Assembly (NCBI GenBank): GCA_030324005.1
Contig: JARDVH010000140.1
Location: forward strand, 21,937,561-22,001,560
Length of the DNA: 64,000 bases
Source of the DNA: Negaprion brevirostris
Taxonomy: Eukaryota
Direction of reading: 5' to 3'
The notes under the pieces were generated by a model. The model saw only the letters and a program-made list of their open reading frames with translations, had not been told where the DNA came from and did no database searches. A program made the position numbers and the translations under genes. Positions 2,056 to 54,210 of this stretch are shown here, piece after piece; position 1 is the first letter of the stretch; each line of letters opens with the position of its first letter.

Positions 2056-2577
<522 letters not shown>

Positions 2578-5470: not shown

Positions 5471-7142
5471 AGCAGGTGTTTTAGACACTCAAGAGTCCTC
5501 AGGTACCTTGCCAAAGTTAGCTTTGGACACAAAGGATAGGAAATTTCCTAAGCAAGCAGAGGTGGATTTGAGTGCATACAGGAAATTAAATTCCCTGAAA
5601 GTGATGTCAGGTCTGATCGCGACATCATTCCGTCCCTGACAGGTTTCACTAATACGATGCGAACATGGGAAATAGGTGTGGCAGCTCATTTGGAACCTCA
5701 AGTCCACTCTGCTATTCAATCAACCATGGTTGATCTGTTGTGGCCTCAACCTCACTTTCCTTCACTTGGGGAGTGCACAGTGGGGAGATTTTCTTCAGTG
5801 AAGCCGACAGACTGGGAAGACTTTAATCAGTAAAACTGATGAACTCCAGCCGCAGCTGGGCAAGGTGTACTTCTTCCTGGAGAGGGTGCTCTCACTGCTC
5901 GACAGACGATTACCAACTCCTTGGAGGGCATTTAAACTGCCTACTACTTAACTTCAGCTGCTCTTCACTGGCAGCCTCCACCATGATAGGAGTGGTGCTT
6001 ACGGAGCTCCACATTGAACATCTGCTAAGGGATAAAAGGGAAAGCAACACCACCACCAACAGCATCAGATGCCCTTCCACAGGGCACAGGGAATGAATAC
6101 AGGGATCCAGCCCAAGTCAAGACTCTGCCTCTCCCCTAACCCTTGACATAGTGCCTACGGGCATAGAATCAGCTTTCTTCATGTCAGAGCACGTATGAAT
6201 CAGGAAGCCCAGGTTGCCATGATAGGCTGTCACTGAGAGCTATGCTCTTCTGAATAACACTTCCTTTTCACTGGCCTCTTGCCAAAGTTCCATGTTGTCT
6301 TCTCTTGCAAGGATAGAAAGGAGTGGTATGAGCTCACCATGCTGCAGCCCCTCAAATCCTGTTCCAAGTACGAGTGAAACTCCTGGGGTTGGGAGGGGGG
6401 CAATACCAGGTCTCCTCTCCATTTCTGTGGTAGCTGCAGCCTCAAAAATTCAATCACTGGTAAGCCATTGTAACCAATGCCATGGTCCCTTTAATTGGGA
6501 AACCTTCCTTTGGCTGATTCAGTGCACGGTTGTCTGGGAACCAGGAGGTGGGATGCTCATGCCTCGGCTTAGTTAAAGTGCCTTTGCAAAGTCCAATTTA
6601 ACTGTAATCTGGTTTCTGACCCATAAACGGCCCTGCCATTTGTCCAGTGACAAAGTTGGGTAAATTTCATACTAAGTGTCAGTTGCCCTGACAGTACTCA
6701 ATCAGTTATCACACACCAGAGATTGAACTTGTGTTGTCCTGCTCAATTGTTGCCATCGGGAAACCCATATCTCATAGCATTAATGAAGTCACTTCGCAAT
6801 TTCATTACTTTGCGAACACTAAAGAGCTTTGGTAACCAGTTGGATAGAAAAAGTAGGAAAATTGAGCTGTATGAGATAAAGTTACAGGACTCCCCTCCTT
6901 TCTACACAGGGTTAAGTTGTCCCATTTTGTTGGCTTATACTTACTGCTTGGCATCTTGCTCTCCACCAAACCTTGTGGTGTTGTTGTATATAAACTTAAA
7001 TACGATAATGAAAAATTAAGAAACTTTGTCTTTGTTAAACACCAATTCTTAACTGAAAGCGTGCAACTTCAATTTTTATTACATCATATTGAAACATTGA
7101 TCAAATTAAACTGTATTCCGTCTTCCTGCTTATGCTATTTTC

Positions 7143-7331
7143 GATGATGTGGAGATGCCAGCGTTGGACTGGGATAAGCATAGTAAGAAGTCGCACAACA
7201 CCAGGTTAAAGTCCAATAGGTTTATTTGGCAGTCCTGATCAGGTGAGTCACCTGATGAAGGAGCCTGAGACTCTGAAAGCTATTCCTGCCAAATAAACCT
7301 GTTGGACTTTAACCTGGTGTTGTGAGACTTA
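7143..7331. mobile_element. Fold-back Penelope-derived mini-element with 13-bp TSD and degenerate hammerhead core (7252-7278)
   Basis: TSD TTATGCTATTTTC at 7130-7142 and 7332-7344; inverted arms cacaacaccaggttaaagtccaataggtttatttggcag / ctgccaaataaacctgttggactttaacctggtgttgtg; CTGATGA-AGGAG..CTCT-GAAAGCTA. Confidence 0.85.
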
Positions 7332-7788
7332 TTATGCTATTTTCATCAACTTACGGACCAGGTTGGTTAATTGAAGTTTGATCCTCTGAGCTTCTCGGCG
7401 ACAGGTTGAAGAGAAATACTGTTCTGTCGTAAAGAACTAAGTTTGCGTCCTAAAGAATACTTCGATCACCATTTCCACTCTCCTGTTCATTATTTCAGAG
7501 GCCTTTAAATTTTTTGGAAGGGGCGAAGGAAGAGGAGATCCAATCATCTATGAAAATATTCGCCAAGGAATGACATCCAAGATCAGATCAGCCAAAACTT
7601 TAAATTTGTTATCCCAACCTGGACAAACATTAAGCGCCCCCAGTGCATTCATTAGCAGCAAAAGCTTTATGTAATAAATGCCAAATTCTATTTGCAAACA
7701 TCAGTCGCACTGCTCCACTAGATAGAGGGAGTCAATAATATTTGCAACACCTGCCATGAGAATTTAATGTGCTGTTGTAATAACTCAC

Positions 7789-7943
7789 CCCTCAAGTCCT
7801 TTCATATCGATAGAGATGTCAATTGTTAATAAGCCATCGTCTTCGGCAAGGCACATTTTCAGGAACTGATCATCCCTTAATTCTTTGACTGGCTTGTTCT
7901 TTACATATTTGAATGAATAAGCAAAATGTGCTTCATCAATATC
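7789..7943 (-). CDS. SUPT6H: SUPT6H coding exon 15 ([51 protein letters not shown])
   Basis: AG/GT boundaries (gttgcag / gtgagt), 155 nt, phase 0 to 2. Confidence 0.97.
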
Positions 7944-8334
7944 CTGCAACCACAAAAATGGGCCCAGCATTAGAATCTCACAGGGCTCTAAGGTCTCTTT
8001 GAGAAAATTTGTGCTGTATGGTAGATACATTTATTAGGAATATAAAAGATTGCTGAAAACTGTTTGACATAATCATCCTATTTTGCCCAATTTATTTTAA
8101 ACACCAATCTCTACTGCACAGAATTCTGACATATGGCACATCTGAATCTCCACAGGATATTTAGAATTGCCATCTTTCAGGTTGTGTGTAAAATTAGAGA
8201 ATAGTTGCAGCACAGGAATGGACCAAATGGCCCTCTGGGTACCAGCCAGCTCTCTGTAAAAATGACTCGGCTAGTTCCATGATGGCTGTGGCTTTAAATA
8301 TTTATTGTATGAGGTACATTACATCTATCGTAAC

Positions 8335-8490
8335 ATGTCTGCGTGGGTTTCCTCCCACAATCTGAAAGACATGCTGATTAGGTGCACTGGCCCAAACAGG
8401 CGCCGGAATGTGACAACTAGGGGAATTTCGCAGTAACTTCATTGCAGTGTTAATGTAAGCCTTATTTGTGACTAATAAATAAACTTTAAA
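8335..8490 (+). mobile_element. 5'-truncated V-SINE, tail type B
   Basis: tctgcgtgggtttcctcccaca..aaagacatgctgattaggtg V-domain followed by type B tail. Confidence 0.8.
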
Positions 8491-8544
8491 GTTAAAGTTT
8501 AACTTTTAACACCATTAATTTCAGTGTTTGCTCATTAACAGTAT

Positions 8545-8719
8545 GAAGTGGAGATGTCGGTGTTGGACCGGGATAAACACAGTAAGGAGTCTTACAACAT
8601 CAGGTTAAAGTCCAACAAGTCCATTTGAGGAAGGAGCAGCAAGCGCTCCGAAAGCTAGTGGCGTTTGCTACCAAATAGACCTGTTGGACTTTAACCTGAT
8701 GTTGTAAGACATCTTACTG
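8545..8719. mobile_element. Fold-back Penelope-derived mini-element with 12-bp TSD
   Basis: TSD CATTAA(C/T)AGTAT at 8533-8544 and 8720-8731; inverted arms tcttacaacatcaggttaaagtccaaca / tgttggactttaacctgatgttgtaaga. Confidence 0.85.
8621..8661 (+). ncRNA. Minimal type I hammerhead ribozyme motif (C3U variant)
   Basis: CCAU UUGAGGA A GGAGC-AGCAAGC-GCUCC GAAA GCU A GUGG; stems I and II intact, palindromic AGCU in place of stem III. Confidence 0.7.
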
Positions 8720-8779
8720 CATTAATAGTATCTCAGAGGAGCAGATAGTCATTTAAGTCTCAGAACGTGGGAGGAGAGT

Positions 8780-9585
8780 GTGACGTACAAACGTGAACTT
8801 GGGAATTTGAGTGCAGGTTGGAATCTCTGGTAATTTTTTTCTCAAGATGCAATTTAGATTAACACCCAGGCTGACTTCAAACGCTAAGCTAATTAAGGAT
8901 CCAGAGGTAACAGAGTCTGCCTGAAAGCGGCACTTTTCTGTCAACTGAAAACGAATAGGTGTTAATCACTGTAGTAGGAAGCTGATTTAGCAGTTATGAC
9001 TTGGGTATGTCATCAACTGTCTATTAGATTGTGCTATCATACAGAGTTTGACTAGGCCTGAGTGCAATGAGGTACACAGTGCAAACTTGGGAATTCGGTG
9101 CAGAAGAGGGAGGAGGGATATATGTGCATTAGAAGCAGTGCACAGAAGGTTCACTCAGCTGATTCCTAAGATGAAGGGGCTTTCTTATGAGGAAAAGTTG
9201 TGCCTATGTTCATTAAAGTTCAAATGAATAAGAAATGATCTTTTGAAATATACAAGATTCTGAGGGGCCTTGACATGATGGATGAAAGATGTTGCTGCTT
9301 CTTGTGGTAGTATCTATAATTGGGGGCAACGGTTAAAAATAAGGGTCACCCATTTAAGAAGGGGATCAGGAAGAATTTCCTGATTGATAGTCTTTGGAAT
9401 TCTCTTTCGTAGAGCAATGGAGTCTGGATCACTGAATACATTAAAAGTAGAGTTAGATTTTTGATCAACAGGAATTAAAAGATTATAGAGGGCAGGCAAA
9501 CAAATAGAGTCAAGGCCTCAATCAAGTCAACCATGATGTTGTTGAATGATGGAGAAGGCTTAACGTCCTACTTCTGTTTATGAAT
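8780..9585 (+). mobile_element. Degenerate CR1 LINE pieces (5' UTR-like part and 3' end)
   Basis: gtgcacagaaggttcactc..ttatgagga..tgatcttttgaaatatacaagattctgaggggccttgac, typical CR1 ORF2 C-terminus and 3' UTR. Confidence 0.6.
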
Positions 9586-9866
9586 CAACTACATGAGGAA
9601 AAATTAATTTATTTTGTACTTAGCTAAATACGGAACAAGACTACATGCATAATTTAACTGTAGAAATCAATTCTCCACTAGTTATTGCTCCATTTTTATT
9701 TTAATTCATGAGGAGCTAACTGGGTGCCACACAGTCTTAGATGTGGGAAGCCATGTGCGCAGCCAAGTGTTATATCCAAAGGCGCCCCCCCCCCGCCTTT
9801 TTTTTTTACTGGTTTTGTCTTTCTTGACTTGTAAAAGTATATCTATTCTCAGGTTCTGCACATTAC

Positions 9867-10017
9867 CTTTTTGCCTTTCTTTGTGGGAGTAATATTAACC
9901 TTGGCTCTCTCTTGGAAGGTCTGTCTTACAACTTGCTTGACCAATGGTTCTCGGGCAATCTGCATGGCCACCATATATCGAGAACCTTCCAGAACAGCCT
10001 CAGGTGTTGGAAATTGA
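9867..10017 (-). CDS. SUPT6H: SUPT6H coding exon 14 ([50 protein letters not shown])
   Basis: AG/GT boundaries, 151 nt, phase 2 to 0. Confidence 0.97.
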
Positions 10018-10200
10018 CTGAAATAGGCATACAATTATTATCAGACTGATGCAGGTAGCTAACTTCATATTTGCAAAAGTTGCATTCAAAGTTCACAGTA
10101 TTAATTTAGTGAAAATATTCATTCTTAATGCAAGTTTTGAAATAGTATTCTAAACTTCAAAAGGTGGCTGACATAGCGTTAAATATTATGACATACGTCA

Positions 10201-10467
<267 letters not shown>

Positions 10468-10669
10468 TTATGATTCAATTTAGAATAAATGATCTCATGG
10501 TGTTTCAAACAAGGAGTTACGATCAATTGCAGTCTTTGGCTAATATAGAAATAGAAGCCAGAAACAACTGGACTAAGACTTTCAGATGTAACTCATTCTC
10601 CACAATGTGAAACCATTTTTCAATGATTTCCATGATAAATTACTACATCCGCACTGATCAGAAAAATTG

Positions 10670-11830
10670 TTTATGGGGTGCCTTTAATGTAATAAAAATG
10701 CTTCACAAAAGTATCATAAAGCAAATCTTGATACCAAGCCAGATTAAGGAGATATTAGATGATCAAGAGTTTGGCCAATGAGGTAGGTTTTGAACATCTC
10801 AAAGGCAGAAAATTAAGAGGCAGAGGGGCTTAGGAATGGAATTTGAGAAGTTCTCATCATGACAGCTGATAAAACAGCTGCCAACTGTGGGGCAATTAAA
10901 ATTGCAGTTGTAGTAGGCACCAGAATTGGAGGAAGGCAGATATCGAAGAGGGACAAAGGGCAGGTTATAGAAATAGGGAATGGAAAAGCCATGAAAGGAT
11001 TTCAAAACAAGGAAGGGAACTTTCAAATCGAGGCATTGCTTAACTGGAAGCAGATGTAGGTCAATGAGCAATTGGATTTGGTACAAGTTGAGATATGGGG
11101 AGTAGAGTATTGGATGATGTCAAGTTTATGGAGGGGGGAAGATGCTAGGCTGGCCAGGAGCGTTTCGGAATAGTCAAATTCAGAAATAACAAAGGCCTGG
11201 ATGAGGCAATCAGCAGTCAATAAGCTGAAGCAGGGTGCGGGTATGACAACACTATGGAAGGAATAATAGGCAGTCTTCGCACAGATACATAGTCATTAAT
11301 TCATTTTGAGATCAAATATGACAGTCGGGTTGCCAAATGTCTAGTTTAACCTCAGATAATTGACAAGAAAAGGATTGGAATGTGCGGCAGGGGGTGAAAA
11401 CAATTGCTTTGGATTTTTCTAATATTTATTTGGAGGAAATTTCTGCTTACCCAGTACTGGATGTTGGATAAGCAATCAAACAATTCAGACACCATAGAGG
11501 TCAAGTGAGGTGAAGTTGAGCGTTGTCAGCATACATATGGAAACTGACTATTCTACTGGAAGATTTAACTGAACGGCCTCATTTATTTGAGAAATACCAT
11601 GCACAGACCTTTGGGGGACAACATATGGACCTGTGCTGGAGCAAGAAGAAAAGCTGTTGCAAATGATTCCGGCTATGACTGGATGGATTAAAAAACCCAG
11701 GAAGTGCAGCCACATTCAGCTGGACAATGGTGGAGAGGCATAGGAGGAAAATGGTGTGCTTGCAACTGTGTCGAAGGCTGCAGATTGGTCAAAAAGGACC
11801 AGGAGGGATAGTTTACTACTGTCAATCACA
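10670..11830 (-). mobile_element. L2-clade LINE fragment (RT to 3' end)
   Basis: Minus-strand SAAFDTV (about 11765-11785) and HMYADN (YADD-like, about 11523-11540) motifs plus FVISEFDYSETLLASL relic typical of L2 ORF2. Confidence 0.75.
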
Positions 11831-12918
11831 CAGGAGATTGCCACTGCAAGTGTTTCATGTTGTAACTATAGCCTGCTCACAAAAGAAGTTGCAATATCAC
11901 CACTGACAAGGTTATTTTTACAGCATTGGCAAACTTAAACTGACAGCTTCTTTTACAACCGCAGACATAGGAATTTAGAGTGGAGAATGTGTGTGCAGAA
12001 ACAAAATTTTTAATACATCAATTAGTCAGATTTATGATTACTAAAGCAACTGTAACAGTCAAACACTGGAATTTAGATTCTATCCCATTCACTTGAGTGT
12101 GCTCAGTAATTGTCAAAAGGGCCAGAGTTTAATTATAGCTCGCGTTTACTTTAAATGTCTGAGTATTCAACTTTCCTATGTTTTCACTCATGTCAGCAAT
12201 CATACCAGCTACCTGCTGTTTTCCCAATGTACATCTTCATTGATCTATAGTGTAACTATCTATACACTGAATCCATCCATGAGATGGCAAAAAGAAAGAT
12301 TATTGGCATTGGTATTATGGGGATATGGCAAATTCAGAGACCAGCATAAATCTCTGTACACTGTAGCTAGCTTAACTTCCAGTAGATTATTGCTTGACAG
12401 ATATTTGAAACCTAATTCGTAATAAAGTTTAGTCTACTTTTCTGAATAATGCTTAAAATTTAAATGATACATGATTGATTTTTGTCCCAATCCAGAATTA
12501 TGATCATGGATCATATATATTTTACTCATAAGGAATGACTAAAGCCACAATGATGCTGACATTGCTAAAACTGGACCAGCCATAGCATAGCTATATTAAG
12601 AGGTCAATTTTATTTTTACTTCACAGCCAGTCCCTCTCATTACCGCAAAACCGTCCCCAGATGTCTGATAATTTGAAGTCACTTATGGATTTCGTTACAA
12701 CCAGGTTAACCATGTTGGAAGTTTGAGACAATGTGCACAGTAAGACTGCACCTATCAAGCAGAAAATTTTTCTTTTGCAAGCAAATGTTGCTTGCCCTTT
12801 AATACTGGTTAGTCTAAAAAGAAAAACTAATTTGGTTTGCTATTAAAAACAATCTCAAGGCAAAAAAAAGTCAAGGTAACGGTTATCGAGCTGAGACACA
12901 CGAGCTCTTACTCTTTAC

Positions 12919-13020
12919 CTAGACCCGCAGTCTGGCAGATAGTATACATGTCTCTGCGAGAAGCCTGCTTCAGTTCAGGCCCATGATGTTCATCATCTTC
13001 AACCTCTTCATCTCGCTCTC
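12919..13020 (-). CDS. SUPT6H: SUPT6H coding exon 12 ([33 protein letters not shown])
   Basis: cag acceptor abuts an N-gap; gtaaag donor; 102 nt, phase 1 to 1. Confidence 0.95.
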
Positions 13021-14292
13021 CTGNNNNNNNNNNNNNNNNNNNNNNNNNNNNNNNNNNNNNNNNNNNNNNNNNNNNNNNNNNNNNNNNNNNNNNNNNNNNN
13101 NNNNNNNNNNNNNNNNNNNNNNNNNNNNNNNNNNNNNNNNNNNNNNNNNNNNNNNNNNNNNNNNNNNNNNNNNNNNNNNNNNNNNNNNNNNNNNNNNNNN
13201 NNNNNNNNNNNNNNNNNNNNNNNNNNNNNNNNNNNNNNNNNNNNNNNNNNNNNNNNNNNNNNNNNNNNNNNNNNNNNNNNNNNNNNNNNNNNNNNNNNNN
13301 NNNNNNNNNNNNNNNNNNNNNNNNNNNNNNNNNNNNNNNNNNNNNNNNNNNNNNNNNNNNNNNNNNNNNNNNNNNNNNNNNNNGGTGTTTAACTACCTTT
13401 ACAATTTGGAATGATATACAGCAGCTAAAATATATAAGCAAAGATTAAACAGGCTAGTAATATGGAACTCTGAAAGCAGGTATTCATTCAAACTCACACA
13501 AAAGGAGACAGGATTGCTCAACATTCTCATCAGAAAAGGAAGAGAGAAACAAAAAGCTTAGCTAGCTGAAGAGAGGGCCCAGAGAATCCTGAAGGTTGTC
13601 AGCCCAATGCCTTCCTCTGCAGCAAATGTCAAAGAGACTGCCATGCCAAAGTGAGGCCCAAGTCACACTAGGTGAGGCTTAATAGAGAGGACAGTTATGG
13701 CACTAACCATCATTTTTTGAGATAAAAGGCTGTCACTGATCGCATATTACAATGTCACTATTTGGATCCCTTAAATTTTTTACTCTGCAATAAAATCCCA
13801 AGTAGGAGATTGCTAAAGGGAAAATTCACTTGTACACTTTATATCAAGAACACTCGTCACCTCAGAAATACCCAAGCTATTTCTACTGTGAGAGGGAAGT
13901 CATCTTATACAAATTTGCCCCACTTGCTTCTAGTATTGCATTTTAGACTTCCATTGCATTATAGTCTCATTAATATCCAAGAACACAAAGGATACTAATT
14001 CTAGTGCAAATTAATTTTCACTCACAGGAGCTTTCCTGTTCTAGTTTTGATCCCAAAATGGCAAGTAATGATAAGTACTAGCATTAAAATCCTTAAGGCA
14101 GATGATTAAAACTAAAACTTTGAAAATTCTTTAAAAATACTCTTTTCTGTATGCCCCCATGACACTGAAAATCTTACCTACAGCAACATACCTTATTAAA
14201 GGCTTTGTGCTAGCGCTTCAAGAAAATTACTTCATCTTCCATACAGGAGAAGATAGGAATGGAAAACTTTGTCAATACGATGATACACTAAC

Positions 14293-14447
14293 CTTCCTCT
14301 TCATCCTCTCCGCCCTGCTGGCTCTTCTTGTATTTCTTTTTCCTTGGCTTCGATGCATTTTGCATTTTCGGAATATCACGACCATAATACAGCAGGAAAT
14401 GATTATAGACATCTCGCAACTCATCAGTCGACTGTACATCCTTCAGT
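14293..14447 (-). CDS. SUPT6H: SUPT6H coding exon 11 ([51 protein letters not shown])
   Basis: AG/GT boundaries, 155 nt, phase 2 to 1. Confidence 0.96.
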
Positions 14448-14619
14448 CTACACAAATGAAAAGGGGGAAATCTCCATAAGACAAAGAAGCACTGAAGCAG
14501 ATTTTACATAAACGAATACAGAAAATGTAAAATTGTTTTCAAATTTTCTACATAGAAAGAAGATAAAAATCCCAAGTGAAGTAACATCAAAAAAGGTAAA
14601 GAGCATTGGCCTTTACCTT

Positions 14620-15050: not shown

Positions 15051-15341
15051 AACTGCAAATGGCCAAACATCCATGTTCTTTTGGGGCAAGTGTGTTCTAT
15101 GTAATGCACTGTATGTCAAACTATGGGTTACAACTTGTGTCTTATCATTCTCTGACATCAGAGTAATTTTCACTAAATTAGTCTCCAGCCATTCCATTCT
15201 ATTATTTCAAAACATGCTGTTTTACAAATCTAACAGTCCAACATATAATGATTAAATTAAGAAACAGATGAAGGCTCTTTAGGCTTTGCAGAAAAAATAG
15301 TTTTGAAATCTAATTTCCCATATGACACATCAGAAAATTAC

Positions 15342-17683: not shown

Positions 17684-17791
<108 letters not shown>

Positions 17792-22255: not shown

Positions 22256-22273
22256 TTACATTACATTATTCTA

Positions 22274-37167: not shown

Positions 37168-37455
37168 GGGCAGCATGGTGACACAATGGTTAGCATTGCT
37201 GTCTCACAGCACAAGTTCAATTCTCGGCTTGGGTCACTGTGTGGAGTTTGCATGTTCTCCCCATGTTTGCATGGGTTTCCTCTGGATGCTCTGGTTTCCT
37301 CCCACAATCAAACACGTGCTGGTTAGGAGCACAGGCCATGTTAATTTTCCCTCAGTGTACCCAAACAAATGCCGGAGTGTGGCGACTTGGGGATTTTCAC
37401 AGTAACTTCATTGCAGTATTAATGTAAGATTACTTGTCTCCAATAAATAAATGTT
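37168..37455 (+). mobile_element. V-SINE, tail type B
   Basis: gggcagcatggtgacacaatggttagcattgctgtctcacagc head, V-domain, type B tail. Confidence 0.85.
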
Positions 37456-37459
37456 TACA

Positions 37460-38613: not shown

Positions 38614-38925
38614 GGTGGCAGCACAGTGGCACAGCAGTTAGCACTGCTGCCTCACAGCATCATGACCCAGGTTTGATTCCCAGTTTGGGTCACTGTCTGT
38701 GTGGAAGTCTGCACGTGTTGCTGCGCCTGCACGGGTTTCCTCCGGGTGCTCCAGTTTCCTTCCACAGTCCGAATGACGTGCTGGTTAGGTGCATTGGCCA
38801 TGCTAAAGTCTGCCTCAGTATACTTGAATAGGCAGCAGAGTGTGGCGACTTGGGGATTTTCACAGTAACTTCATTGCAGTATTAATGTAAGCCTTCTTGC
38901 GACATTTATAAATACATTTAAACTT
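38614..38925 (+). mobile_element. Full-length V-SINE, tail type B
   Basis: ggtggcagcacagtggcacagcagttagcactgctgcctcacagc..ggtttgattcc (A/B boxes), V-domain, type B tail. Confidence 0.85.
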
Positions 38926-42789: not shown

Positions 42790-45240
42790 AGGACTGGCAT
42801 TTGTTTTGCAACTTCTGAAATCATGTCATCATGGTGATCTCCTGCCCACAGCTGACTTCATCATTTGTATCAAACATTAGCTCGAGCTTCCCACTTGTCC
42901 CCGATGTTGACGGCATTCCGTGAATCTGAGTTTTGGGTGCGCTATTGGTCTCCTGGTGTGGACTACCTCTCTATATAGCTCATCCTTAGGGATATGGGCA
43001 TCTTCCATTCTGTGCACACGTCCAAGTGAGTGTAGTTTCCTTTGCCGGATTAATGCTAACATAAGAGGCATCTTTGTCCTAGAAAGGGTTGTTTCAATGA
43101 TATCAGGTGATATCAGTTACATCACAGACACCAGAGATGGAAGTTATTGAGCATTTGCTTTTGGTGGATATTAGCTGTTCAAGCTTTTCTCCCATACAAC
43201 AAAGCACGTGTTGAACTCTTTGTCAAGATGCAGGTTTCCTGTCACTGTAGATCCAAATGCAGTAGAACTTGTTGACTGTTTCCAGTGGTGTTGTTGAGTC
43301 TGATGACAGGTGGAGACAAAGCACTCTGTCCCATAACTAGTTTTCTTGACACAGCTGGTGATGGAGAACATGACGCAAGCATGGGATAGATGCTCACGAA
43401 CCTTCGGAGCTGGTTGTGTCTGGGCATCAGAGAGGATCTCTGATCAGGAACATGTCTCACTTTTGTCTTGACTATCAGTCCGGACAGATTGAGGAGTTTC
43501 CCATCAAATTGCACGTGAAGGTAGATTCCTTCCTTATCAGCAGGGACAGCATAGGTCAACAGGACAGAGAAAAAAAATACCAAAGGTGGGGGTTAAGATG
43601 CCACTCTGTTCTCACTCCACTCTTAATCCCCAAAACATCGGAGGTGCAGCCATCGTTACGGTGTTGCACGTTATCGTGGAAAAACTGCACGAGACTGTGA
43701 AACGTGAGAAGCACCTGATTTTCCCTGGTATTGAGGATAGGCCTGTCCTGCTCAGAATGTTAAATGCTATTGGTTTGCATACATGTAGAATCTTTGTTGC
43801 TCTCTGTGCTTTGCTTTAAGCTGATATGGGGAGAAGGTTATTTCTACTGTGGAGTTGCACACTCTGAAGCCAACCTGTACTTCCAGGCAAATTCTCTTGG
43901 CTAGGCAATGTAGCCTTATTGGAACGACTCTGGAAAAGGATTGTTCTGATATAACATGTTTGCATTGCACATCTCCTGTGGGACAGAGTCTTCAGTTTAG
44001 CAGAGGTGGAAGGGGTTGTGAGGGAATGGTAGCAGATGGGGATTTCCATACGTGAGTAGCTTGGATGGTATTCCGTTCTTTCTAGGTGCTTTCCTTGCTG
44101 CTAGGGAGTCAATGGCCTTTACAAGCTTAGGTAACGAGGGTTTTGCATCAAACTCGTAAATGACATGTATATAGAGAAAATTATCAAGCACGAGCAGAGA
44201 GACATTTTTCACGTGAACATAGCTCAGCGCAGTGCATTACTCAGCAGGTTATTTGCTTGTTCTGAACGTAAGCACCTTCTCAACTATGGATTTCAAAGGA
44301 GCAACTTTGGTGATGACGGTGATAAGTGTTCTTTTGAATCCTTCATATACAGTGAAAGTTACCATTGTCAATGGCAGTTTATATTTCTTCTCATGAATTA
44401 ATCCAATACTTGAGCACAGTTCCTTGCTCCGTTCTGCATAACTACATTGGCTAGCATGAGACTGTCACATGCTTTAGGGTTACAAGGCACGTTTTAAGCA
44501 AGGTGAGTTCATTTCAATGAAAAGACATTTCTTTGAAGTGGATCTTGAAACAACCTTTGCCTATTTTTTGCTTTCCCAAATGTGATTACTGCACCTTCAT
44601 AGATGATTGACTGCAGATATTTCCATGCTTCACCAACGTTATCAGGAGAGCCCTTCAAGCGGAGGGAACTACCTGGAAGCCGAAAACTTTAACAATTGGT
44701 GGCAGCTCTTTTGGACGGAATGCAGATGCTTGCACTTGTCTTCTTTTCCCATAATTGCAACTTCACTGACAACCGATCAGTAATGCAATCTACACAGTCG
44801 TGGACGCGAGGAACACTGAATAGATTGCATTTTATGGTGATTTTCAGGTCAAATTGGCATCAAGGGCTAAATCTTGGATGGTGCAATGACATCCTGTGCC
44901 AATGTCTGCCCTGGAAGGTGGTATAACACAAAGTTCACTCTGCGCACAAAGTCCTGGTTGCAGCTGTTCATTTTCATTCACCATGGCACACATGACCAAA
45001 GCATGCTTGCCATGAAAGTGCCAGATCCAATTCTTGTGCTGAAGATCTCCAGGAGAAATAACTTTGCTCCTTGTGGCAGACGTTCCAGTTCACCTGTAAT
45101 TTTGCAGAAGTTATTTTTCTCTTCAGCACTGGCATACAAGGTTGGTGCATAAGCACAGATGGTTGTGACAAAACTTTGTGGATGAAAGCTTTCAGAAGTC
45201 ACAACAGGCATCTCCATTGTCTCCAACAATCTTAGGCTGA
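42790..45240 (-). mobile_element. RTE-clade LINE (endonuclease to C-terminus), degenerate
   Basis: Minus-strand TTICAYAPTLYASAEEKNNF (APE), KAIDSLAARKAPRKNGIP, QVGFRVCNSTVE, LGRVHRMEDAHIPKDELY..RRPIAHPKLRF. Confidence 0.85.
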
Positions 45241-45989
45241 TGTATGGCACACACTTTTTGCCATTCAAGTGCCTAGAAATGACCATCTTAAATAAAAGAA
45301 AATCTAACCATCTTCCCCTGACATTTAGCAGCATTGCCACTGCTGAATATGCCCCCATCAACATCCGAAGGGCTTACCATTGACCAAAAACTTAACTGGC
45401 CCAGTCACATAAATATGGCAACTACAAAAGCAAGGCAGTATGATTGGGAATTCACCTCCTGACTTTCTAAAGTTTCTACAAGGTTAGGTGTGTGATGAAA
45501 CATTCTCAATTGCTTGCACGAATACAGATAAACACGCTAAGTCCTGCGCAGGACAAGTAGTCCTCCACCATCCCTTAATTGTTGCCCTTTTCAACAGCTT
45601 AAATATTTAGTCTCCCCATTAGAAACACATCATAGCAGCAGCTGGACCATCTACACAACGCACTGTAGCAACTCACTAAGGCGCCTTTGATGACACCTTT
45701 CAGATCTGCAAATTCTACCACCTAGAATGGCAGCAAACACAGACACACCGGACTGTCAGGTCATGCACTTTCGTGATTTGGAAAATACTTGGCGTTCCTT
45801 CACAATCGCTGGATCAAAATCCTGAAACTCTATCCCTAACACCACTTTGACAATGCCTACACCACAACGTCTGCAGCGATTCAAGTGGCAGCTCAATAGT
45901 ACCTACTCATGGGCAATAAATACTTGCTTTGCTAGTGATGCACAAAAGCAGAGACCGAATGAAAAAAATAAATACCTAAGTGTCAATGG

Positions 45990-46230
45990 TAGCATTCTTA
46001 TCTCTCCGACTTGGGTTCAAACCCACTTCAGGATGACAGCAAACAATATATATTGAAGCACTGAAAGAGTGCTACACCATCAGAATTGCCAAGTTTCAGA
46101 TGCAATGCTAAATCTAACACCTGCATACGTGTGGACATAAAAAATTCCAACGCACTTTTCAAAAGAGAAAAATCAGGCAATTCTCTGTTTTCTGGCCAAT
46201 ATTCACCATTAAGTTTGGGGCACCAAACCG
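45990..46230 (+). mobile_element. Deu-domain SINE (SacSINE1/AmnSINE1-like), degenerate
   Basis: gagtgctacaccatcag..tttcagatg..gtggacataaaaaattcc..gcacttttcaaaagag..ctggccaatatt resembles the Deu domain; second copy at 61010. Confidence 0.55.
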
Positions 46231-47940
46231 CAGGAACTTGGATTTGAAAGCATTATAGCACAGGTTCATCAAAATGACACCAAGGCTTAAAGTATTCATC
46301 CACAAGAACAGGTTGCATAAAATATTTTGTATTTGCTTGAGTTTGGAAGTTTGAAAAAGTAATACAATTAAGGCATTTATAATGATCAATTAACTAAATT
46401 AAGTAAATATAGAGGAACTATTTCCTCTGCTGGAAAATCCAGGACAAGAGGGCGTCATTTTACAATTAGAGTGGAGTGAAATTAGAAAGCTACTTCTGTA
46501 CACAAAGCGCGTGGAAAATCTACACCTTGCTCCCCTAAAAGGCTGCAGATCTTGGAACAAATAGAACTTTTCAAAAAAGATTTTTTCAACAGATTTTTAG
46601 AAAGGTATCGAGGAACATGAAAAAATTGCAAACAGAGTTGAGGGACATTTTAGCCGTGATCTAGCTGAATGGTGGAAAGACTCAAGGGGCTGAATAGTCA
46701 ACCCCTGAGTGGGTCTGTCCAGATTACAACAACATTTGGCGATATGGAATCAAATATCAATTTGTCTTTGTTGTCAAATCCACAACCAAGAACTTTCCTA
46801 AAAATAGGTGGCATATATTGTGTAAAACGTTGAATACTTTTGAGATGAACGTGTGAATTACTATAATTTTGCACATCGGTATATGGTATTATGTAAAACC
46901 AGCACAAAACAGGAAGAATCAAGTTGGGTGAATTGGTTGTGCTAAATTGCCCATTTGTGCCCAAAAAAGTGTAAGTTAGGTGTATTAGACATGGGAAATG
47001 CATAGGCTTACGCGGGCGGGCAGGTGCTGGTTCAGTGGTGAATGGCCACCTTCTGCACTTTAGGGATTTCTAAGGTTCTATGTCCAGCATTTAAATTTCC
47101 TTTCCTCAATCTAAATAAAAAATAAAAATGAATTTTGGAAAGTGGATTTCAGAATTGTCTGTTGTTTATGGCCAGTATCAGGAATTACAATAAGCTGTAC
47201 TTAGCTAGGACAAGTTCCAATTTTATTCCCGACATCCCGCAGAAAGCATGTTTCAAGGTTCTACCTGCATCTTCAACTAATCCTTGGAGTCAGTAAGAAC
47301 ATCTACTACTGCAGATGCCAGCGTGAAAGTGTTGACTTTTGGTACACTTATTAACTTACGTCTGTTAGAGTACTATGATTTCTAGAGTCAAAATGTTGTA
47401 TGTTCAAATGGCACTAAGAGCTTATAACAGTCCTGGTCAGAAATACATCTTTTGATTGCAATGTTGAACTTAGGTCACAGGCTCTGCGTGTTTCCAGGTG
47501 GGCATAACAGACTTCAACAATCCCCTGTTNNNNNNNNNNNNNNNNNNNNNNNNNNNNNNNNNNNNNNNNNNNNNNNNNNNNNNNNNNNNNAAATAAATGA
47601 TGGCTACACATTTGCTACTTGCATACCCAAATGCGTAAATTGTCTGGTAGTTATCTACACAACATCAGCATTTCAAATAATCAGCTGCATAGTGCTTTGA
47701 GGCATCCAGAAGATTTGAGAATATGCTTATGTGAATATATTTCTCTTGCGCAGTATCACAACATGGTTCTGTGCTTTCATTTTGCATTAACCAAACTCTA
47801 AACTTTCTTTACGTGAAAGAAATATTAAAATGAGATATCATCTTCCTATCATAGTGCATATTCCAGAAATAAGTTAATTGTGCACAATGGGGATACAAAC
47901 CATATATGGCTCAAGTTTACACTGCAGACATATCACATAC

Positions 47941-48037
47941 CATCGTCATCTTCCATGAACTTCTTGGGTACTGCTGTTCCTTCTTCATTATACTCTTCCT
48001 CAGACTCCTCAGCTTCACTCTCCACAAAGTCAGACAT
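47941..48037 (-). CDS. SUPT6H: SUPT6H first coding exon ([32 protein letters not shown]); exon spans 47941-48048 with 11 nt of 5' UTR
   Basis: ATG at 48037; conserved [16 protein letters not shown] start; acceptor ttcttccttttcgctgtgcag; donor gtatgt. Confidence 0.97.
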
Positions 48038-48539
48038 CTTTGCAAACCCTGCACAGCGAAAAGGAAGAAATATTTGAAGCAAAACTCAAAGTCTATGTCA
48101 CACCAAAAGCAATTTAACAGGTATAGAAAGAGGGTCTATCTATTTGACTTTTTTTTGGGGGGGGGGAGAAAGAGAAGAGGAATGTTTATTTGAAACAGGT
48201 AACAAAAATGTATACAATAAAATATTTTATTAAGATGACAAAACATGCATGTTTAGTGCAGGAAAAAAGTAGGAAAGCGTACATTTTCTGAGATTAAAAA
48301 CACATAACGGAACTAACTTAATGTATATAAAAGATGTGGTTGACATTTAAAACAACGCTGGGGTTGTAGAATTGATAGGAGTGTGAACCTAAAGATCTGG
48401 GTAATCCTGTTACTGACTGTAAAGGGGGGAGGGGGAGAGGGCCAGTTACAGAGTAAGCAGGGATCAGAGGGAGTGGGTTTTTTGGCGATGGTTGGCAGTT
48501 TGTTTTTCCTGTGTGTGTGAGAGATGGGGATTTTGGGGC

Positions 48540-48900
48540 TGGGAGGATTTGCGGCCTAGTGCGGGTGTGGGAGCCTCCAACGCTGAAACCAGACCAGGTC
48601 AGCACGGCGGCGGTAGCCACAGTTCACACAAACAGCCGACCGTTTCAGAGAAAATATAAAAGAGAAGGGAAATAAATGGAGAGAGAAGGGAGAAGAGATC
48701 AGCACCTTGCTGAAGGTACCGAGAGAAAACGGCCCGATAACTTCCCCCGGACTGACTGAGCGATCCCAGCCCAGCACGGAAATACTTTAAAAATGGCCGC
48801 CCGTGTGCAACCCGCAAACCTCTCCGCGCCTTGTGCAACCCCTAAACCTTCCCCTTCCTGGCACCTCCAGCCCGCCGCCTCCAGTTCCGGGAGAGGAATC
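48540..48900 (-). promoter_or_regulatory. SUPT6H: CpG-rich SUPT6H promoter / non-coding first exon (candidate exon about 48706-48800)
   Basis: Local CpG enrichment; YY1-type AAAATGGCCGC 48790-48800; ETS-like CGGAAA and TTCCGG; first coding exon has an acceptor so an upstream exon is required; donor position uncertain. Confidence 0.55.
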
Positions 48901-49005
48901 AACACCAGAGATGTAAACATCCCAGCACCCAGGCATGTCCCCCCTCTCCCCTTCCAATCCTCATCCATTCTACCGTAGACAAGAGTGTGGCTCTTCCCCC
49001 TTTTG

Positions 49006-49356
49006 ATGTGGAAATAACAGGCGTTGGACTGGAGTAAAGCACAGTAAGAAGTCTCACAAAACCAGGTTTCAGTCCAACAGGTTTATTTGGTAGCACGTGA
49101 ATGGGAGTTCTGATCACAAACAGAGCATATAAAGACACACACTCAGTTTGCAGAATACTGATGAGAATGCGAGTCTTTACAGCTAATCAAGTCTTAAAGG
49201 TGCAGTCACTCACATTGTTTGTNNNNNNNNNNNNNNNNNNNNNNNNNNNNNNNNNNNNNNNNNNNNNNNNNGAAGGGGCAAACCCTGCAAGCTAGTGGCA
49301 TTTACTACCAAATAAACCTATTGGACTTTAACCTGGTGTTGTGAGACTTCTTACCG
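49006..49356. mobile_element. Fold-back Penelope-derived element with perfect 14-bp TSD, in the intergenic promoter region
   Basis: TSD TCTTCCCCCTTTTG at 48992-49005 and 49357-49370; left arm is the reverse complement of the 4149-4408 pLTR, right arm the direct pLTR end. Confidence 0.85.
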
Positions 49357-49799
49357 TCTTCCCCCTTTTGCCAAACACAACTCTACACCTGGACAACAGC
49401 TCTGAAGAAGATTTTGGCAGGAGGGTCGGAAGTGTTAATTTTTTCTCTGCACAGATTGACTCAGTTTATTCAACATTTTCTGCTTATAATATTATTATTG
49501 AAGAGGCGATGAACATACTCCAGACATGCCTGGGTGGGATTTTATAGCCTTGCTCGTCCCAAAATCATAACATCCTGCCCGCGGTCAATGGACCTTCCCA
49601 TTGCCCACTCCGATTCCTCTGGCAGGCGGGGCGGTAAAATTCTGGCCATTAACTCTGTTTCTCCCTCCACAGATGCTGCTAGATCTGCTGAGTTTAGCCA
49701 GCATTTACTATTTTTATATTATTACTCAAGAAGTCATTTTTAATCCAACTATTAACTCTGTTTCACTCTCCTTGGATGTTGCCTGACCAACGTTTTAAG

Positions 49800-50106
49800 T
49801 TTTCAAGTTATTTTTATTATTGTCACAAGTAGGCTTACATTAACATTGCAGTGAAGTTACAGTGAAAATCCCCTAGTCGCTACACTCCACCACCTGTTCA
49901 GTTACAGCGAGGGAGAATTTGTTAGCGTGGCCAATGCACCTAACCAGCACATCTTTCGTAAAGTGGGAGGAAACCGAAACCCCAGAGAAAACCCACGCAG
50001 ACATGGGGAGAATGGGCAGACTCTGCACAGACAGTGACCCAAGCCGAGAATCGAACCAGGTTCCTGGTGCTGTGAGGCAGCAGCGCTAACCACTGCATCA
50101 CCATGC
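49800..50106 (-). mobile_element. Full-length V-SINE, tail type B
   Basis: Reverse complement of the 38614-38925 element. Confidence 0.85.
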
Positions 50107-50307
50107 ATTTATCCAGCATTTTCTGACCCCAATTGCTGGCAGACTGTATATTTCTCACGATAGTTGAGTGGCCAATAGGTTAATCTCAAGGGGATAAAAT
50201 CAAATCTCTGTAATGAAGAAATTATCCAAACTCTTAAATTACAGATTTAATTGATACAAATATTTAAATATATGTATCTAACTCGATACTCCAACATTTC
50301 ATCATAA

Positions 50308-50782
50308 GGTGGCACTGTTATTGCTGGTCTTCAACCTGCCGTTGGCGCTGTTGGAGTTGGTCCTCCAGTCAGGTGGTGGCGCTGTTGGAACTGGTCCTCC
50401 AGTCTGCCGGTGGCTCTCTTGGTGCTGGTCCTCAAGTCTTCAGGTGGCGCTGTTGAGGCTGGTCCTCCAGCCTGGCGGTGGTCCTGTTGGAGCTGGTCCT
50501 CCAGTCTGGCGGTGGCGGTGTTTGAGCTGGTCCTTCAGCCTGCCGGTGGCGCTATTGGAGTTGGTCCTCCAGCCTACCGGTGGCGCTGTTGGATCTGGTC
50601 CTCCAGCTTGGCGGTGGCCCTATGGAAGCTGGTCCTCCAGCGTGCCGGTGGTGCTGTTGTAGTTTGTCCTCCAGCCTGCCGGTGGCGTTGTTGAAGCTGG
50701 TCCTCCAGCCTGCCGGTGGCGCTGTTGAAGCTGGTCCTCCAGCCTGCCGGTGGCGCTGTTGGAGCTGGTCTTCCAGCTTGCT
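50308..50782. repeat. GC-rich minisatellite, 34-bp unit, about 14 copies
   Basis: Consensus GGTGGCGCTGTTGGAGCTGGTCCTCCAGCCTGCC in contiguous tandem copies with scattered substitutions. Confidence 0.92.
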
Positions 50783-50821
50783 GACGTTGGCTGGCAGCCG
50801 GGTGGCGGTTGAAGGAGGAAG

Positions 50822-50882
50822 ATGGAGTCTGCGTTAAAGCCGGTCTCGGGGTTGGTCCGGCTGTGGATTGTTTCCTGGTTTG
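50822..50882 (+). CDS. SDF2: Probable start of SDF2 exon 1 (signal-peptide-like MESALKPVSGLVRLWIVSWF), remainder lost in N-gap 50883-51520
   Basis: Strong Kozak gaagATGG in CpG-rich sequence, hydrophobic N-terminus, upstream of SDF2 exon 2; the conserved VTCGS..HSHDV part is not visible. Confidence 0.6.
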
Positions 50883-52645
50883 NNNNNNNNNNNNNNNNNN
50901 NNNNNNNNNNNNNNNNNNNNNNNNNNNNNNNNNNNNNNNNNNNNNNNNNNNNNNNNNNNNNNNNNNNNNNNNNNNNNNNNNNNNNNNNNNNNNNNNNNNN
51001 NNNNNNNNNNNNNNNNNNNNNNNNNNNNNNNNNNNNNNNNNNNNNNNNNNNNNNNNNNNNNNNNNNNNNNNNNNNNNNNNNNNNNNNNNNNNNNNNNNNN
51101 NNNNNNNNNNNNNNNNNNNNNNNNNNNNNNNNNNNNNNNNNNNNNNNNNNNNNNNNNNNNNNNNNNNNNNNNNNNNNNNNNNNNNNNNNNNNNNNNNNNN
51201 NNNNNNNNNNNNNNNNNNNNNNNNNNNNNNNNNNNNNNNNNNNNNNNNNNNNNNNNNNNNNNNNNNNNNNNNNNNNNNNNNNNNNNNNNNNNNNNNNNNN
51301 NNNNNNNNNNNNNNNNNNNNNNNNNNNNNNNNNNNNNNNNNNNNNNNNNNNNNNNNNNNNNNNNNNNNNNNNNNNNNNNNNNNNNNNNNNNNNNNNNNNN
51401 NNNNNNNNNNNNNNNNNNNNNNNNNNNNNNNNNNNNNNNNNNNNNNNNNNNNNNNNNNNNNNNNNNNNNNNNNNNNNNNNNNNNNNNNNNNNNNNNNNNN
51501 NNNNNNNNNNNNNNNNNNNNAAAAACAAAAAGTACAGAGAAAACTTAAGACACATCAAATCAAAATGTGATTGGCAGGGTCTATAACGCACCTCAGCCCC
51601 TGCGGTGCCCAGCGGGTCTCGTTGGAGTGGGGAGAGAGGGAGGGAATAGGTGATGTCCTGTTCTCTCCTCCTCCCCTCACCACCAACAACCCCACCCCTT
51701 CAAATGGGACTGGGTTGTGTGGGAAATGGGTGAGTTGCCCAGGGCTGTGAAGGTCACTCGCTCCAGAAATGTTCTGGAGGAAATATTAGTTCTTACAGTA
51801 TCACTCATGCACTGCTTACAAATTTGGCAACTGATTAGCTGTGTCAGAGTTAATGCTCCTGATCCCTTGAATACATTAAAAGTGCAAGAAAACAGATACA
51901 ATATAAATTGGTAACTACTGCAATTCAAGCTAAAATCTATAAGAAGGTTCTCAAGCTCAAGTGAAAAAATTCATAGGTGTGATTTAAAAAAAACGAAGCT
52001 GTTATTCTAAGTATAATATGCTCACAGAAGATCAAAACACTACGTTACTTGAAACAGTCAGTATGAATTCTGACCTTGTAGTCTGTACTCAGTACCTATT
52101 GAAGATTGACTGAAATTCGAACCTGGGATACCTGAGCATTCCTCTAGGTTTATGGTTTACTAGTTCAGTGAACCATACCACTGGGCCACAGGAGGAAGCC
52201 AAACACAACAGAGCATGCATCAGCTTCTAAATAAATGGTCAGCACAAAAGCTGGGAACCCAACTTGGCTCAACTGCTTCATAGAATCCCTGCAGTGCGGA
52301 AGGAAGCTATTTGGCCCATCGAGTATGTACCGACCACAATCCCACCCAGCCCCTATTCCCATAAAACCTACTTGGTTTTCTAGGTATCTAATTTTATGCC
52401 GCTTGTCAAGTTATCACACCTTTTGTTCTCAGCGGTGCAATGTATTTTGGGCAATGTGCATTTCAGACATTTTAGTATTTATAATGCCTTCAAGAATTCT
52501 TCAATTGGTACATTTGTGTGATACTGTTTTTGCTCATTTTGACTGTAGATTTAAAATGTTATTTCTGTCTTCAAGGTCAACCCCCTCCCCCCCACATCCG
52601 CAGAGTACATTAGAAACTAATTCATTCATTGGCATTCTGTTCTAG

Positions 52646-52842
52646 GAAGTGGTCAGCAGTCTGTGACTGGAGTGACTGAAGCAGATGACAGCAACAGTTA
52701 CTGGCGAATACGTGGAAAAAGTGATATTGTGTGCCAACGTGGAAATCCGGTAAAATGTGGTGAGACGATTCGATTGACCCATGTCAATACAGGTCGTAAT
52801 TTACACAGTCATCACTTTACATCACCGTTATCAGGAAACCAG
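52646..52842 (+). CDS. SDF2: Stromal cell-derived factor 2 exon 2, MIR domains (SGQQSVTGVTEADDSNSYWRIRGKSDIVCQRGNPVKCGETIRLTHVNTGRNLHSHHFTSPLSGNQ)
   Basis: ttctgttctag acceptor, gtgagt donor, 197 nt, phase 1 to 0; peptide matches SDF2; head-to-head synteny with SUPT6H favours SDF2 over SDF2L1. Confidence 0.95.
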
Positions 52843-53054
52843 GTGAGTTGTCTGCATTGGTAATGAAGACATCTCTTCAGCACCTGCATCCTCTGTGTGA
52901 GCTTTTAAAAATTATAAGTCATCCTAAATTACTAAGCACTTTGCTGAAATTTTCAACTAGAAATAAAATTAGCTTTGGTAGTAACAACACTATCCATTGC
53001 TCTGTAGTCTACCTCTGTCAGGCTCTTTATTTTTATCCAGATTGGCTGAAAACC

Positions 53055-54210
53055 TTTTTATTCATTGACGGGATGTGGGGTCAGTGGCCAGGTCAGCATT
53101 TGTTGCCCATCTTGAATTGCCCTTGAGAAGGTGGTGGTGAGCTACCATTTTAAATGCTACAGTCCCTGTGGCATGAGTACACCTGATGTGGAGTTGTGTA
53201 ACCTCGTGTTGTGAGACTTCTTACTGTATGAGTATACCCACAGTGCTGTTAGGGAGGAGTTCCAGGATTTTGACCCAGCAACAGTGAAGGAATGGCAATA
53301 TATTTTCAAGTCAGGATGGTGAGTAACTTGGAGGGGAAACATGATGCTGCTATATGTCTGCTGTCCTTGTCCTTCTAGATGACAGTGGTTGTGGGTTTCA
53401 AAGGTGCTACCTAAGGATGGTGAGTTCCTTCAGTGCATCTTGTTGATTGTAGCAGCGGTCTGCACCATGTGTCAGTGGTAGTGGGAGGGAATGTGGATGG
53501 AGTGTTAATCGACGGGCTGCTTTGTCCTGGTTGGTATTTCCGAGTGTTATCGGAGCTACACTCCTCCAGTCAGAGTACGCCATCACACTCCTGACTTGTG
53601 CCTTGTAAATTGTGGACTGGCTTTGGAGTGTCAGGAGGTGAGTTACTTACCGCAGGATTCCTAGCCCCTGACGTATGCTAGCAGCCACAATATTTATATG
53701 GCTTGTCCAATTAAATTTCTGGCCAGTGGTAACTCCTGGGATGTTGATAGCGATGGATTCAGCAATGGCAGTGCCATTTAATGTCAAGGGATGATGATTA
53801 CATTTTCTCACTGGGGAGGTTATTGACCGGTGTTTGTGTGGTGTGAATGTTACTTGCCACATGTCAGCTCAAAACTAGATATTGTCCAGTTCTTGCTACA
53901 TTTGTGGTAGGAACCTTAGGAACATGCAAAAATGGAACAACAATTTAGTACTTCTGGCTAAAAGTGGTTTCAGACACTTCAGCCTTGTCTTTTGCACTGA
54001 TGTATTGGGTTGCCTCATCATTGAGAGTGAGGCTGTTCCTGGATCTTCCTCCGGTTATTTAACTGTTCTCCGTAAGTTACAATTGGATGTGGCTGGACTG
54101 CAGAATTTTTTGGTCTGTTTGTTGTGGCTTCAACATGTTGTCACCCAATTTTCAGGTGTCTGTGCTGCTCCTCACATGTCCTTCTGCTATCCTCATTGAA
54201 CCAGGGACGG
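53055..54210 (-). mobile_element. LINE-A fragment
   Basis: Minus-strand WQVTFTPHK..INIPGVTTGQKFNWTSHINIVAA..LGILR and the shared tail. Confidence 0.75.
53184..53227. mobile_element. 44-bp collapsed Penelope-derived insertion with 11-bp TSD inside LINE-A
   Basis: TSD ATGAGTA(C/T)ACC at 53173-53183 and 53228-53238; begins tgatgtggag and ends gtgttgtgagacttcttactgt like the larger fold-back copies. Confidence 0.75.

Follow-up and report, generated by a model that had tools for sequence, protein, structure and literature searches.

The window analyzed here is a stretch of 64,000 nt from the shark Negaprion brevirostris (NCBI GenBank assembly GCA_030324005.1, contig JARDVH010000140.1, positions 21,937,561 to 22,001,560 of the forward strand) and consists of vertebrate, intron-rich DNA with 13 N gaps. 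It contains four short insertions, here called copies A to D, which are built from the pseudo-long terminal repeat (pLTR) of a Penelope-like element (PLE). An earlier note, made from the sequence alone, had described them as one family of fold-back Penelope mini-elements resembling miniature inverted-repeat transposable elements (MITEs), and all four are present at the coordinates given there. Each insertion joins an inverted arm with a tail to a sense arm without a tail (4/4 window copies) and is flanked by a target site duplication (TSD). A fifth copy (E, 3898-4410), which is tail-bearing and contains an endonuclease remnant, is absent from the earlier note. Positions within the pLTR are counted from its internal end site, set to 0 (4375 in copy E), with negative numbers running upstream.

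Layout of the four insertions

Copy A: 7143-7331, 189 nt
7130..7142, plus strand: left TSD of copy A, 13/13 identical to 7332-7344
7143..7248, minus strand: inverted arm of copy A, a 38-nt tail (7143-7180) and pLTR back to about -95
7248..7331, plus strand: tail-less sense arm of copy A, from about -93
7332..7344, plus strand: right TSD of copy A, its first 3 bases also matching the element end
Copy B: 8545-8719, 175 nt
8533..8544, plus strand: left TSD of copy B, 11/12 identical to 8720-8731
8545..8628, minus strand: inverted arm of copy B, a 35-nt tail and pLTR back to only -48
8626..8719, plus strand: tail-less sense arm of copy B, from -88
8720..8731, plus strand: right TSD of copy B, 12 nt with one mismatch
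Copy C: 49006-49356, 351 nt, gap included
48992..49005, plus strand: left TSD of copy C, 14/14 identical to 49357-49370
49006..49222, minus strand: inverted arm of copy C, a 36-nt tail and pLTR to at least -206, entering an assembly gap
49223..49271: 49-N assembly gap covering the junction of copy C
49272..49356, plus strand: tail-less sense arm of copy C, from -84 or further upstream
49357..49370, plus strand: right TSD of copy C
Copy D: 53184-53227, 44 nt
53173..53183, plus strand: left TSD of copy D, 10/11 identical to 53228-53238, within an older host repeat
53184..53193, minus strand: inverted stub of copy D, about 10 nt, the last part of the tail
53199..53227, plus strand: tail-less sense arm of copy D, -27 to +1, 28/29 identical to copy E
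53228..53238, plus strand: right TSD of copy D, 11 nt with one mismatch

The separate duplication of 11-14 nt ascribed to each insertion by the earlier note is found in every case (A 13/13, B 11/12, C 14/14, D 10/11). For copy A, the match is complete, but the 3-base overlap with the element end leaves a duplication of 10-13 nt. The score of the weakest duplication was reached by 2 of 3000 random position pairs with the same geometry and by 4 of 300 pairs with a looser geometry. Target and element overlap by 0-3 nt. A search of the window with the host repeat around copy D gave four left-flank and eight right-flank matches, from which four copies were aligned. All four aligned copies that reach the insertion point lack a block of 50-56 nt, approximately the insert plus one duplication (55 nt), and thus represent empty sites. 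For A, B, and C, the window contains no empty site and no repeat copy that spans the insertion point.

As the earlier note had stated, all four insertions begin with the reverse complement of the outermost end of the pLTR. Its claim of a shared motif at the right end holds for B, C, and D (within 1 nt) but not for A, which ends 3-6 nt earlier. The end motif occurs eight times in the window versus 0.66 times expected, with five sense and three antisense occurrences at five loci. The outer ends are constant to within a few bases, while the inner junctions vary: those of A, B, and D are all different and that of C falls in the 49-N gap. The inverted repeats do not reach the termini, where 3-5 of 15 bases agree in all four copies, but begin 35-38 nt inside one end, at the inner border of the tail. 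This tail measures 38 nt in A, 35 nt in B, and 36 nt in C, is reduced to a stub in D, and stands in sense orientation in E. All four insertions have the same strand orientation (chance 1 in 8), with host genes pointing both ways. A GC dinucleotide stands directly left of the TSD in A (7128-7129), C (48990-48991), and D (53171-53172) and one base away from it in B (8530-8532), a possible nick preference noted post hoc in four insertions.

The pLTR contains a hammerhead motif whose core starts at -89, with the cleavage position at -61, and none of the copies A to D has retained it completely (0/4). The inverted arm of A has an internal deletion from about -53 to -80 and has lost most of the hammerhead; its sense arm keeps the core (7252-7281) and has lost the 3' strand of helix I. 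Both arms of A meet in a loop-free palindrome (-95/-93) with one shared base at 7248. The sense arm of B lacks the first core base and the 5' strand of helix I, and its junction has 2-3 shared bases. In copy C, the hammerhead interval from -52 to -86 is deleted from the inverted arm, and in the sense arm the GAAA box is altered. Copy D has no hammerhead, and five bases between its stub and its sense arm were assigned to neither. The three long inverted arms (7234-7248, 8626-8628, and 49094-49106) are all interrupted at -48 to -52, immediately 3' of hammerhead helix I; the interruption is an internal deletion in A and C and the junction in B, and the ORFs found outside the window (see below) show that it is not obligatory.

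The fold-back character that had been attributed to all four insertions applies to A and B, which are predicted to form very stable long hairpins (z -12.7 and -13.3), but not to D, in which the 10-nt stub has no overlap with the 29-nt sense arm and folding resembles that of shuffles (z -0.28). No Rfam family, hammerhead models included, matches the window at the gathering score; by E-value only generic hairpin models appear, on copy B. Two microRNA (miRNA) precursor models score well below their thresholds on the hairpin of copy B (8588-8711), as a generic hairpin would.

Parent element and related copies

3670..3899, plus strand: fragment F, immediately 5' of copy E, a pLTR from a related PLE subfamily with a 3' truncation at about -45
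3898..4035, plus strand: C-terminal remnant of the GIY-YIG endonuclease open reading frame (ORF) in copy E, 46 codons with one stop
4150..4375, plus strand: pLTR of copy E up to the internal end site, with the hammerhead at about 4280-4320
4376..4410, plus strand: tail of copy E in sense orientation, whose reverse complement begins copies A to D

Copy E connects the arms to a GIY-YIG remnant and bears out the earlier note in calling the insertions Penelope-derived rather than DNA-transposon MITEs. Its order on the plus strand is endonuclease remnant, 112-N gap, pLTR, end motif (4375), and about 35 more bases. Four database proteins match the remnant with 75-80% identity, including two named shark proteins; the nearest named matches to the repeat come from Mustelus asterias and Scyliorhinus torazame. 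The remnant also aligns to the C-terminus of P0013, a protein of 881 aa (56% identity over 45 aa, E 1.6e-14), and by itself has no Pfam match. In P0005, one of the named shark proteins, GIY-YIG motif, pLTR, and tail follow one another in a gap-free reading. Given this continuity and the joint presence of tail, pLTR, and endonuclease remnant in copy E, copies A to D represent pLTR ends of a PLE that is probably of the Neptune type.

This placement is based on motifs. A search with P0002 gave 190 matches, among them P0013, which combines RVT_1, a CX2-5CxxC linker, and a GIY-YIG domain with two cysteines. The P0013 relatives P0069, P0103, and P0068 match GIY-YIG in Pfam. The linker precedes GIY-YIG in five of five long relatives and is not readable in the window. 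According to PMC8557442, it belongs to Neptune and Nematis, and the linker is therefore shared with the latter. The parent family has both GIY-YIG and reverse transcriptase (RT), as endonuclease-containing PLEs do, while the four miniature copies are non-coding. Other PLE features found here are a hammerhead motif in the pLTR (complete only in E), the tail, the inverted truncated copy, and a TSD of variable length.

The hammerhead of copy E is a complete minimal type I motif with its core at 4286. The core pattern occurs twice in the window (in E and A), versus 0.07 times expected, and helix II is 88% paired with two two-sided changes among five rows, a level reached by 23 of 500 shuffles. No TSD was found for E or for F and E together. 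The abutment of fragment F and the ORF remnant of E (3670-4410) resembles a partial tandem or a chimera of two PLE subfamilies.

The layout of copies A to D corresponds to a published one, as the earlier note had stated for inverted 5' pLTRs of Penelope. In Adineta vaga, the inverted pLTR of Pen2a is accompanied by a 31-bp tail and a 9-bp TSD, and a second copy has a 10-bp TSD (PMC3846280). Inverted, 5'-truncated PLE copies are frequent and often have a tail of 30-40 bp at one end only, the origin of which was guessed to be endonuclease-mediated resolution by a mechanism called undefined (PMC8557442). Very short insertions are known as well, with a median of 128 bp through 5' truncation in one study (PMC9977147). 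A minimal hammerhead has been defined, and pairs of the motif lie on opposite strands 100-700 bp apart in Schistosoma (PMC4209133). Since the extra 35-38 nt of the inverted arm equal the published PLE tail, the whole layout is a described PLE insertion structure. Copies A to D almost certainly arose as four separate insertions of a Neptune-type PLE with this layout, all of them old and heavily 5'-truncated.

Copies outside the window were found through predicted proteins. A protein-set search with the translation of copy A gave seven predicted ORFs, which provide amino-acid views and form a sample biased by the tail-containing query and by the need for an open frame. Four of them (P0158-P0161) include both orientations, two stop inside the inverted arm, and one stays within it. 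P0158-P0161 have the layout of copies A to D with different junctions. P0158 is a complete miniature: its tail arm extends to about -30 and its sense arm covers about -44 to 0, and the peptides on either side are nearly identical, which suggests that about 15 nt were duplicated. The tail-less end lies at 0 in P0161, and the sense end of P0159 is hidden by a stop. At this resolution, the junctions of A, P0159, P0160, and P0161 all lie loosely near -85 to -100. The tail is confined to one end in the three resolvable ORFs (P0158, P0160, and P0161). A rule that the tail-bearing arm always loses the hammerhead was rejected; it holds for A, B, and C, but P0159, P0160, P0161, and E keep the hammerhead there.

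Origin of the head-to-head arms

In the explanation that we favor, with a probability of roughly 0.6, both nicks of a staggered cut act as primers, one for each of two start sites on the PLE RNA, and the two incomplete cDNAs become linked head to head. The GIY-YIG endonuclease would cut the target strands 11-14 nt apart. The 3' end of the bottom strand would prime reverse transcription at the internal start site (position 0), and the 3' end of the top strand would prime at a second site 35-38 nt further down the RNA, corresponding to the tail end. Both cDNAs would be antisense and would end prematurely at differing positions, perhaps often close to the hammerhead, after which host repair would join them through a microhomology of 0-3 nt and fill in the overhangs, creating the TSD. 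Under this model, the start sites would account for the constant outer ends and truncation for the variable inner junction, while hammerhead sequence missing from some inverted arms may have been skipped by the RT or deleted later. The copies were most likely dead on arrival.

The tail-less arm of B, D, and P0158 holds sequence that is absent from the tail arm, which two primers explain without further events, and the model fits all eight two-orientation cases without extra events. The small overlap between target and element is as expected if priming needs no homology. Folding predicts a 9-bp stem in the interval with both start sites and an inner hairpin immediately before position 0. The two stereotyped outer ends point to the insertion mechanism, as proposed in the earlier note, but not in the form of classical L1 twin priming, nor as simple fold-back in the case of B and D. 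Classical twin priming on a single RNA, as in L1, is unfit as it stands because both arms copy the same interval.

One tail per insertion was observed in seven of seven resolvable cases, three of which come from the biased sample. This exceeds independent site choice and suggests either fold-back or a dimer that holds both start sites of a single RNA. Tentatively, a PLE dimer might engage one RNA at both start sites, one per subunit, and act on opposite nicks; each two-armed insertion would then carry exactly one tail, and both of its arms would derive from one molecule. If this is true, miniature copies in sharks would be a genome-wide fossil record of two-site twin priming that unites tail, inverted pLTR, and TSD. 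No published link of these three features through two-site priming was found in the literature searched, older PLE reviews excepted.

The arms were compared over 41 columns in seven arms, with D omitted as too short. The arms differ at 2, 4, and 4 columns within copies versus a mean of 5.3 between copies (18 pairs), copy B accounting for one of the values of 4. The true left-right pairing gives 10 differences and ranks second of six, behind a cross pairing with eight, because the left arm of A shares a variant with the right arm of C. The two variants that had been named for copy B are present in both of its arms, together with a third (simulated chance of three about 6e-4); A has one shared arm variant, just outside the 41 columns, and C has none. 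The greater likeness of arms within copies is therefore clear in B but not general. The variant of B's right arm apparently occurs in both arms of P0158 and P0161, so that such variants can be subfamily marks. The earlier claim of one template for both arms holds in a weak sense, that of a shared source copy or subfamily; a single template molecule is not proven. At the level of sequence, the shared variants point to a common source copy and are compatible with one RNA, two RNAs of the same locus, or later conversion.

Several points weigh against the two-primer explanation. Its basis consists of the four window copies, of which C has an unreadable junction, and of four outside copies viewed at the protein level. 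PMC11167929 found that start sites do not differ between the strands, from which products with two tails or with none would be expected; none were seen, and the exclusivity of one tail calls for an added assumption of coupling. That in vitro study concerns a Poseidon element and, in the parts available, does not discuss inverted copies or TSDs. Copy A has a palindromic junction without a loop, a structure attributed to self-priming in PMC3846280. The tail-less end of P0160, read from the other side, lies at about +5 instead of 0. In the 3'-end stem, none of 14 pairs has a two-sided change among four sequences, and the 3' end of copy E itself folds no better than shuffles. Finally, copy E has a tail, but neither an inverted partner nor a TSD was found for it.

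Alternatively, a cDNA that started at the tail end, or else an antisense template, could have folded on itself and been copied back to the internal site, with resolution by the endonuclease and later shortening through deletions in the unstable palindrome. Such a fold-back origin accords with the palindromic junction of copy A and explains one-tail asymmetry and shared variants together, and the tail arm of A, P0159, and P0161 reaches upstream as far as the tail-less arm or slightly further. Self-priming (PMC3846280) and endonuclease-mediated resolution (PMC8557442) are already published. Because internal sequence has indeed been lost from the inverted arms of A and C, fold-back stays a serious rival, albeit one that we consider rather unlikely: B (-48 vs -88), D (no overlap), and P0158 (about -30 vs -44) would each need an extra deletion, and the sense arm of A holds hammerhead sequence absent from its inverted arm. 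We consider it improbable that the copies form a non-autonomous fold-back mini-element, possibly ribozyme-bearing, that was transcribed and re-mobilized by a PLE protein. The constant outer ends and clean TSDs (4/4), the junctions near -85 to -100 mentioned above, and the start of B's sense arm at -88 would agree with it, and non-autonomous PLE derivatives are known in the form of retrozymes (bioRxiv 10.64898/2026.07.22.740005) and Chlamys (PMC8557442). However, the four lengths range from 44 to 351 nt (gap included), no junction is common to several loci among the three readable window copies (a tiny sample relative to the genome), and the clustering of ORF junctions may reflect limits of the query and reading frame. 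The single family and the ribozyme-bearing element of the earlier note are thus not upheld, the visible junctions all being different and a complete hammerhead being absent from A to D; retrozymes, moreover, are head-to-tail tandems.

Independently made arms that later became alike by gene conversion within the hairpin, in which case the shared variants would carry no information on insertion, are very unlikely. The hairpins are very stable (z about -13), and several shared variants occur only in B, with one in A and none in C. Against this, B's arms still differ at four of 41 columns, the variant of its right arm in both arms of P0158 and P0161 suggests inherited subfamily variants, and conversion leaves outer ends and TSDs unexplained. 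Mobilization as true MITEs by a DDE transposase has next to no probability in our estimate, in spite of the short, AT-rich, hairpin-forming sequences with direct repeats on both sides. We rejected it on account of the non-matching termini (3-5/15, with the inverted repeat starting 35-38 nt inside one end), the TSD length (11, 12, 13, and 14 nt), and the continuity of the sequence with a PLE endonuclease ORF. Of the signs of a MITE named in the earlier note, a fixed TSD length is absent, and for a matching transposase none of 163 ORFs scanned in part of the window matched a transposase family.

Genomic setting and comparison with known systems

Copies A and B lie on either side of an exon near 7800-7950 of the SPT6 gene on the minus strand and are intronic hairpins in SPT6. 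The exon within 7788-8030 matches SPT6 in the PDB (E 3e-25), and 966-1259 matches the SPT6 YqgF domain. Copy D lies just 3' of a MIR-domain exon on the plus strand (52621-52860) of a gene that we take to be SDF2, and copy C lies between the two genes, which are arranged head to head (48040-52860, SPT6 on the minus and the MIR-domain gene on the plus strand). Some 200 nt separate copy C from a promoter-like, GC-rich stretch near 48700-48900. An intronless reading frame within an SPT6 intron (2032-2355, plus strand), probably a processed pseudogene, presumably corresponds to ribosomal protein S27. A 34-nt GC-rich tandem repeat with 14 copies (50308-50781) adjoins a 638-N gap. Another interspersed repeat, which we assume to be a short interspersed element, has copies at 1778-1865, 8402-8489, 37371-37458, 38834-38921, and 49794-49898, one of which stops about 40 nt before the left duplication of copy B.

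The shape of the insertions is known, but the mechanism behind inverted pLTR and tail is still called unresolved (PMC8557442 and PMC11167929). Within about 200 nt, miniature copies expose the target junction on either side, the two fixed ends, and the point of inversion, and four copies in 64 kb suggest, by extrapolation from one window, very many in a shark genome. Tail combinations, arm extents, and arm variants collected genome-wide could tell two primers from fold-back. Such copies can also pass for MITEs or miRNA hairpins or leak into gene models, as in P0004 and P0005, shark isoforms (FAM210B and septin 5a) with translated pieces of Penelope endonuclease or pLTR, which represent either exonization or gene-model error. 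The hairpins in the SPT6 introns may possibly be subject to editing or give rise to small RNAs.

MITEs are defined by terminal inverted repeats, a fixed TSD length, and a uniform size. The insertions described here are similarly short, hairpin-forming, and flanked by direct repeats, but they have no terminal inverted repeats, TSDs of 11-14 nt, a size of 44-351 nt, and a retroelement origin. In L1 twin priming, two target nicks prime two cDNAs, resulting in an inverted segment, a microhomology junction, and a TSD. There, the inverted segment comes from further upstream in the RNA and mostly does not overlap the other, whereas both arms copy the same 3' interval here and synthesis of the inverted arm begins at a second, fixed site further downstream. 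Retrozymes (bioRxiv 10.64898/2026.07.22.740005) are likewise short, non-coding, and derived from a PLE pLTR, but are head-to-tail tandems with complete hammerheads. Copies A to D are head-to-head singletons with broken or absent hammerheads, and no tandem array was found at the four loci.

Among PLEs, the Neptune proteins (P0013 and relatives) are comparable over 45 aa of the window remnant (56% identity to P0013); the window holds no full ORF. The Poseidon element PAc of Anolis carolinensis (PMC11167929) also has two fixed ends bounding the tail, 35-38 nt apart, with little target homology and both ends in a predicted stem-loop downstream of the hammerhead. Its protein cuts and extends both strands in vitro, is predicted to form a dimer, starts synthesis at the two tail-bounding sites, and needs no target homology for priming (PMC11167929). 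PAc belongs to the Poseidon clade, whereas relatives of the present element have a Neptune-type linker, and its start sites were determined in vitro, while those proposed here are deduced from genomic ends. The A. vaga Pen2a/Pen2 copies differ in their TSDs (8-10 bp versus 11-14 nt); in addition, the present insertions are only 44-351 nt long, both arms end inside the pLTR, and one tail is a 10-nt stub. They share with them the head-to-head, inverted, 5'-truncated copy, the tail of 30-40 nt at one end, the variable TSD, the hammerhead in the pLTR, and the palindromic junctions, which were read as self-priming on an antisense template (PMC3846280). Both the anatomy and the very short size have known counterparts, and copies A to D are of a known kind, structurally ordinary and of use as a compact set of cases for testing how such insertions arise.

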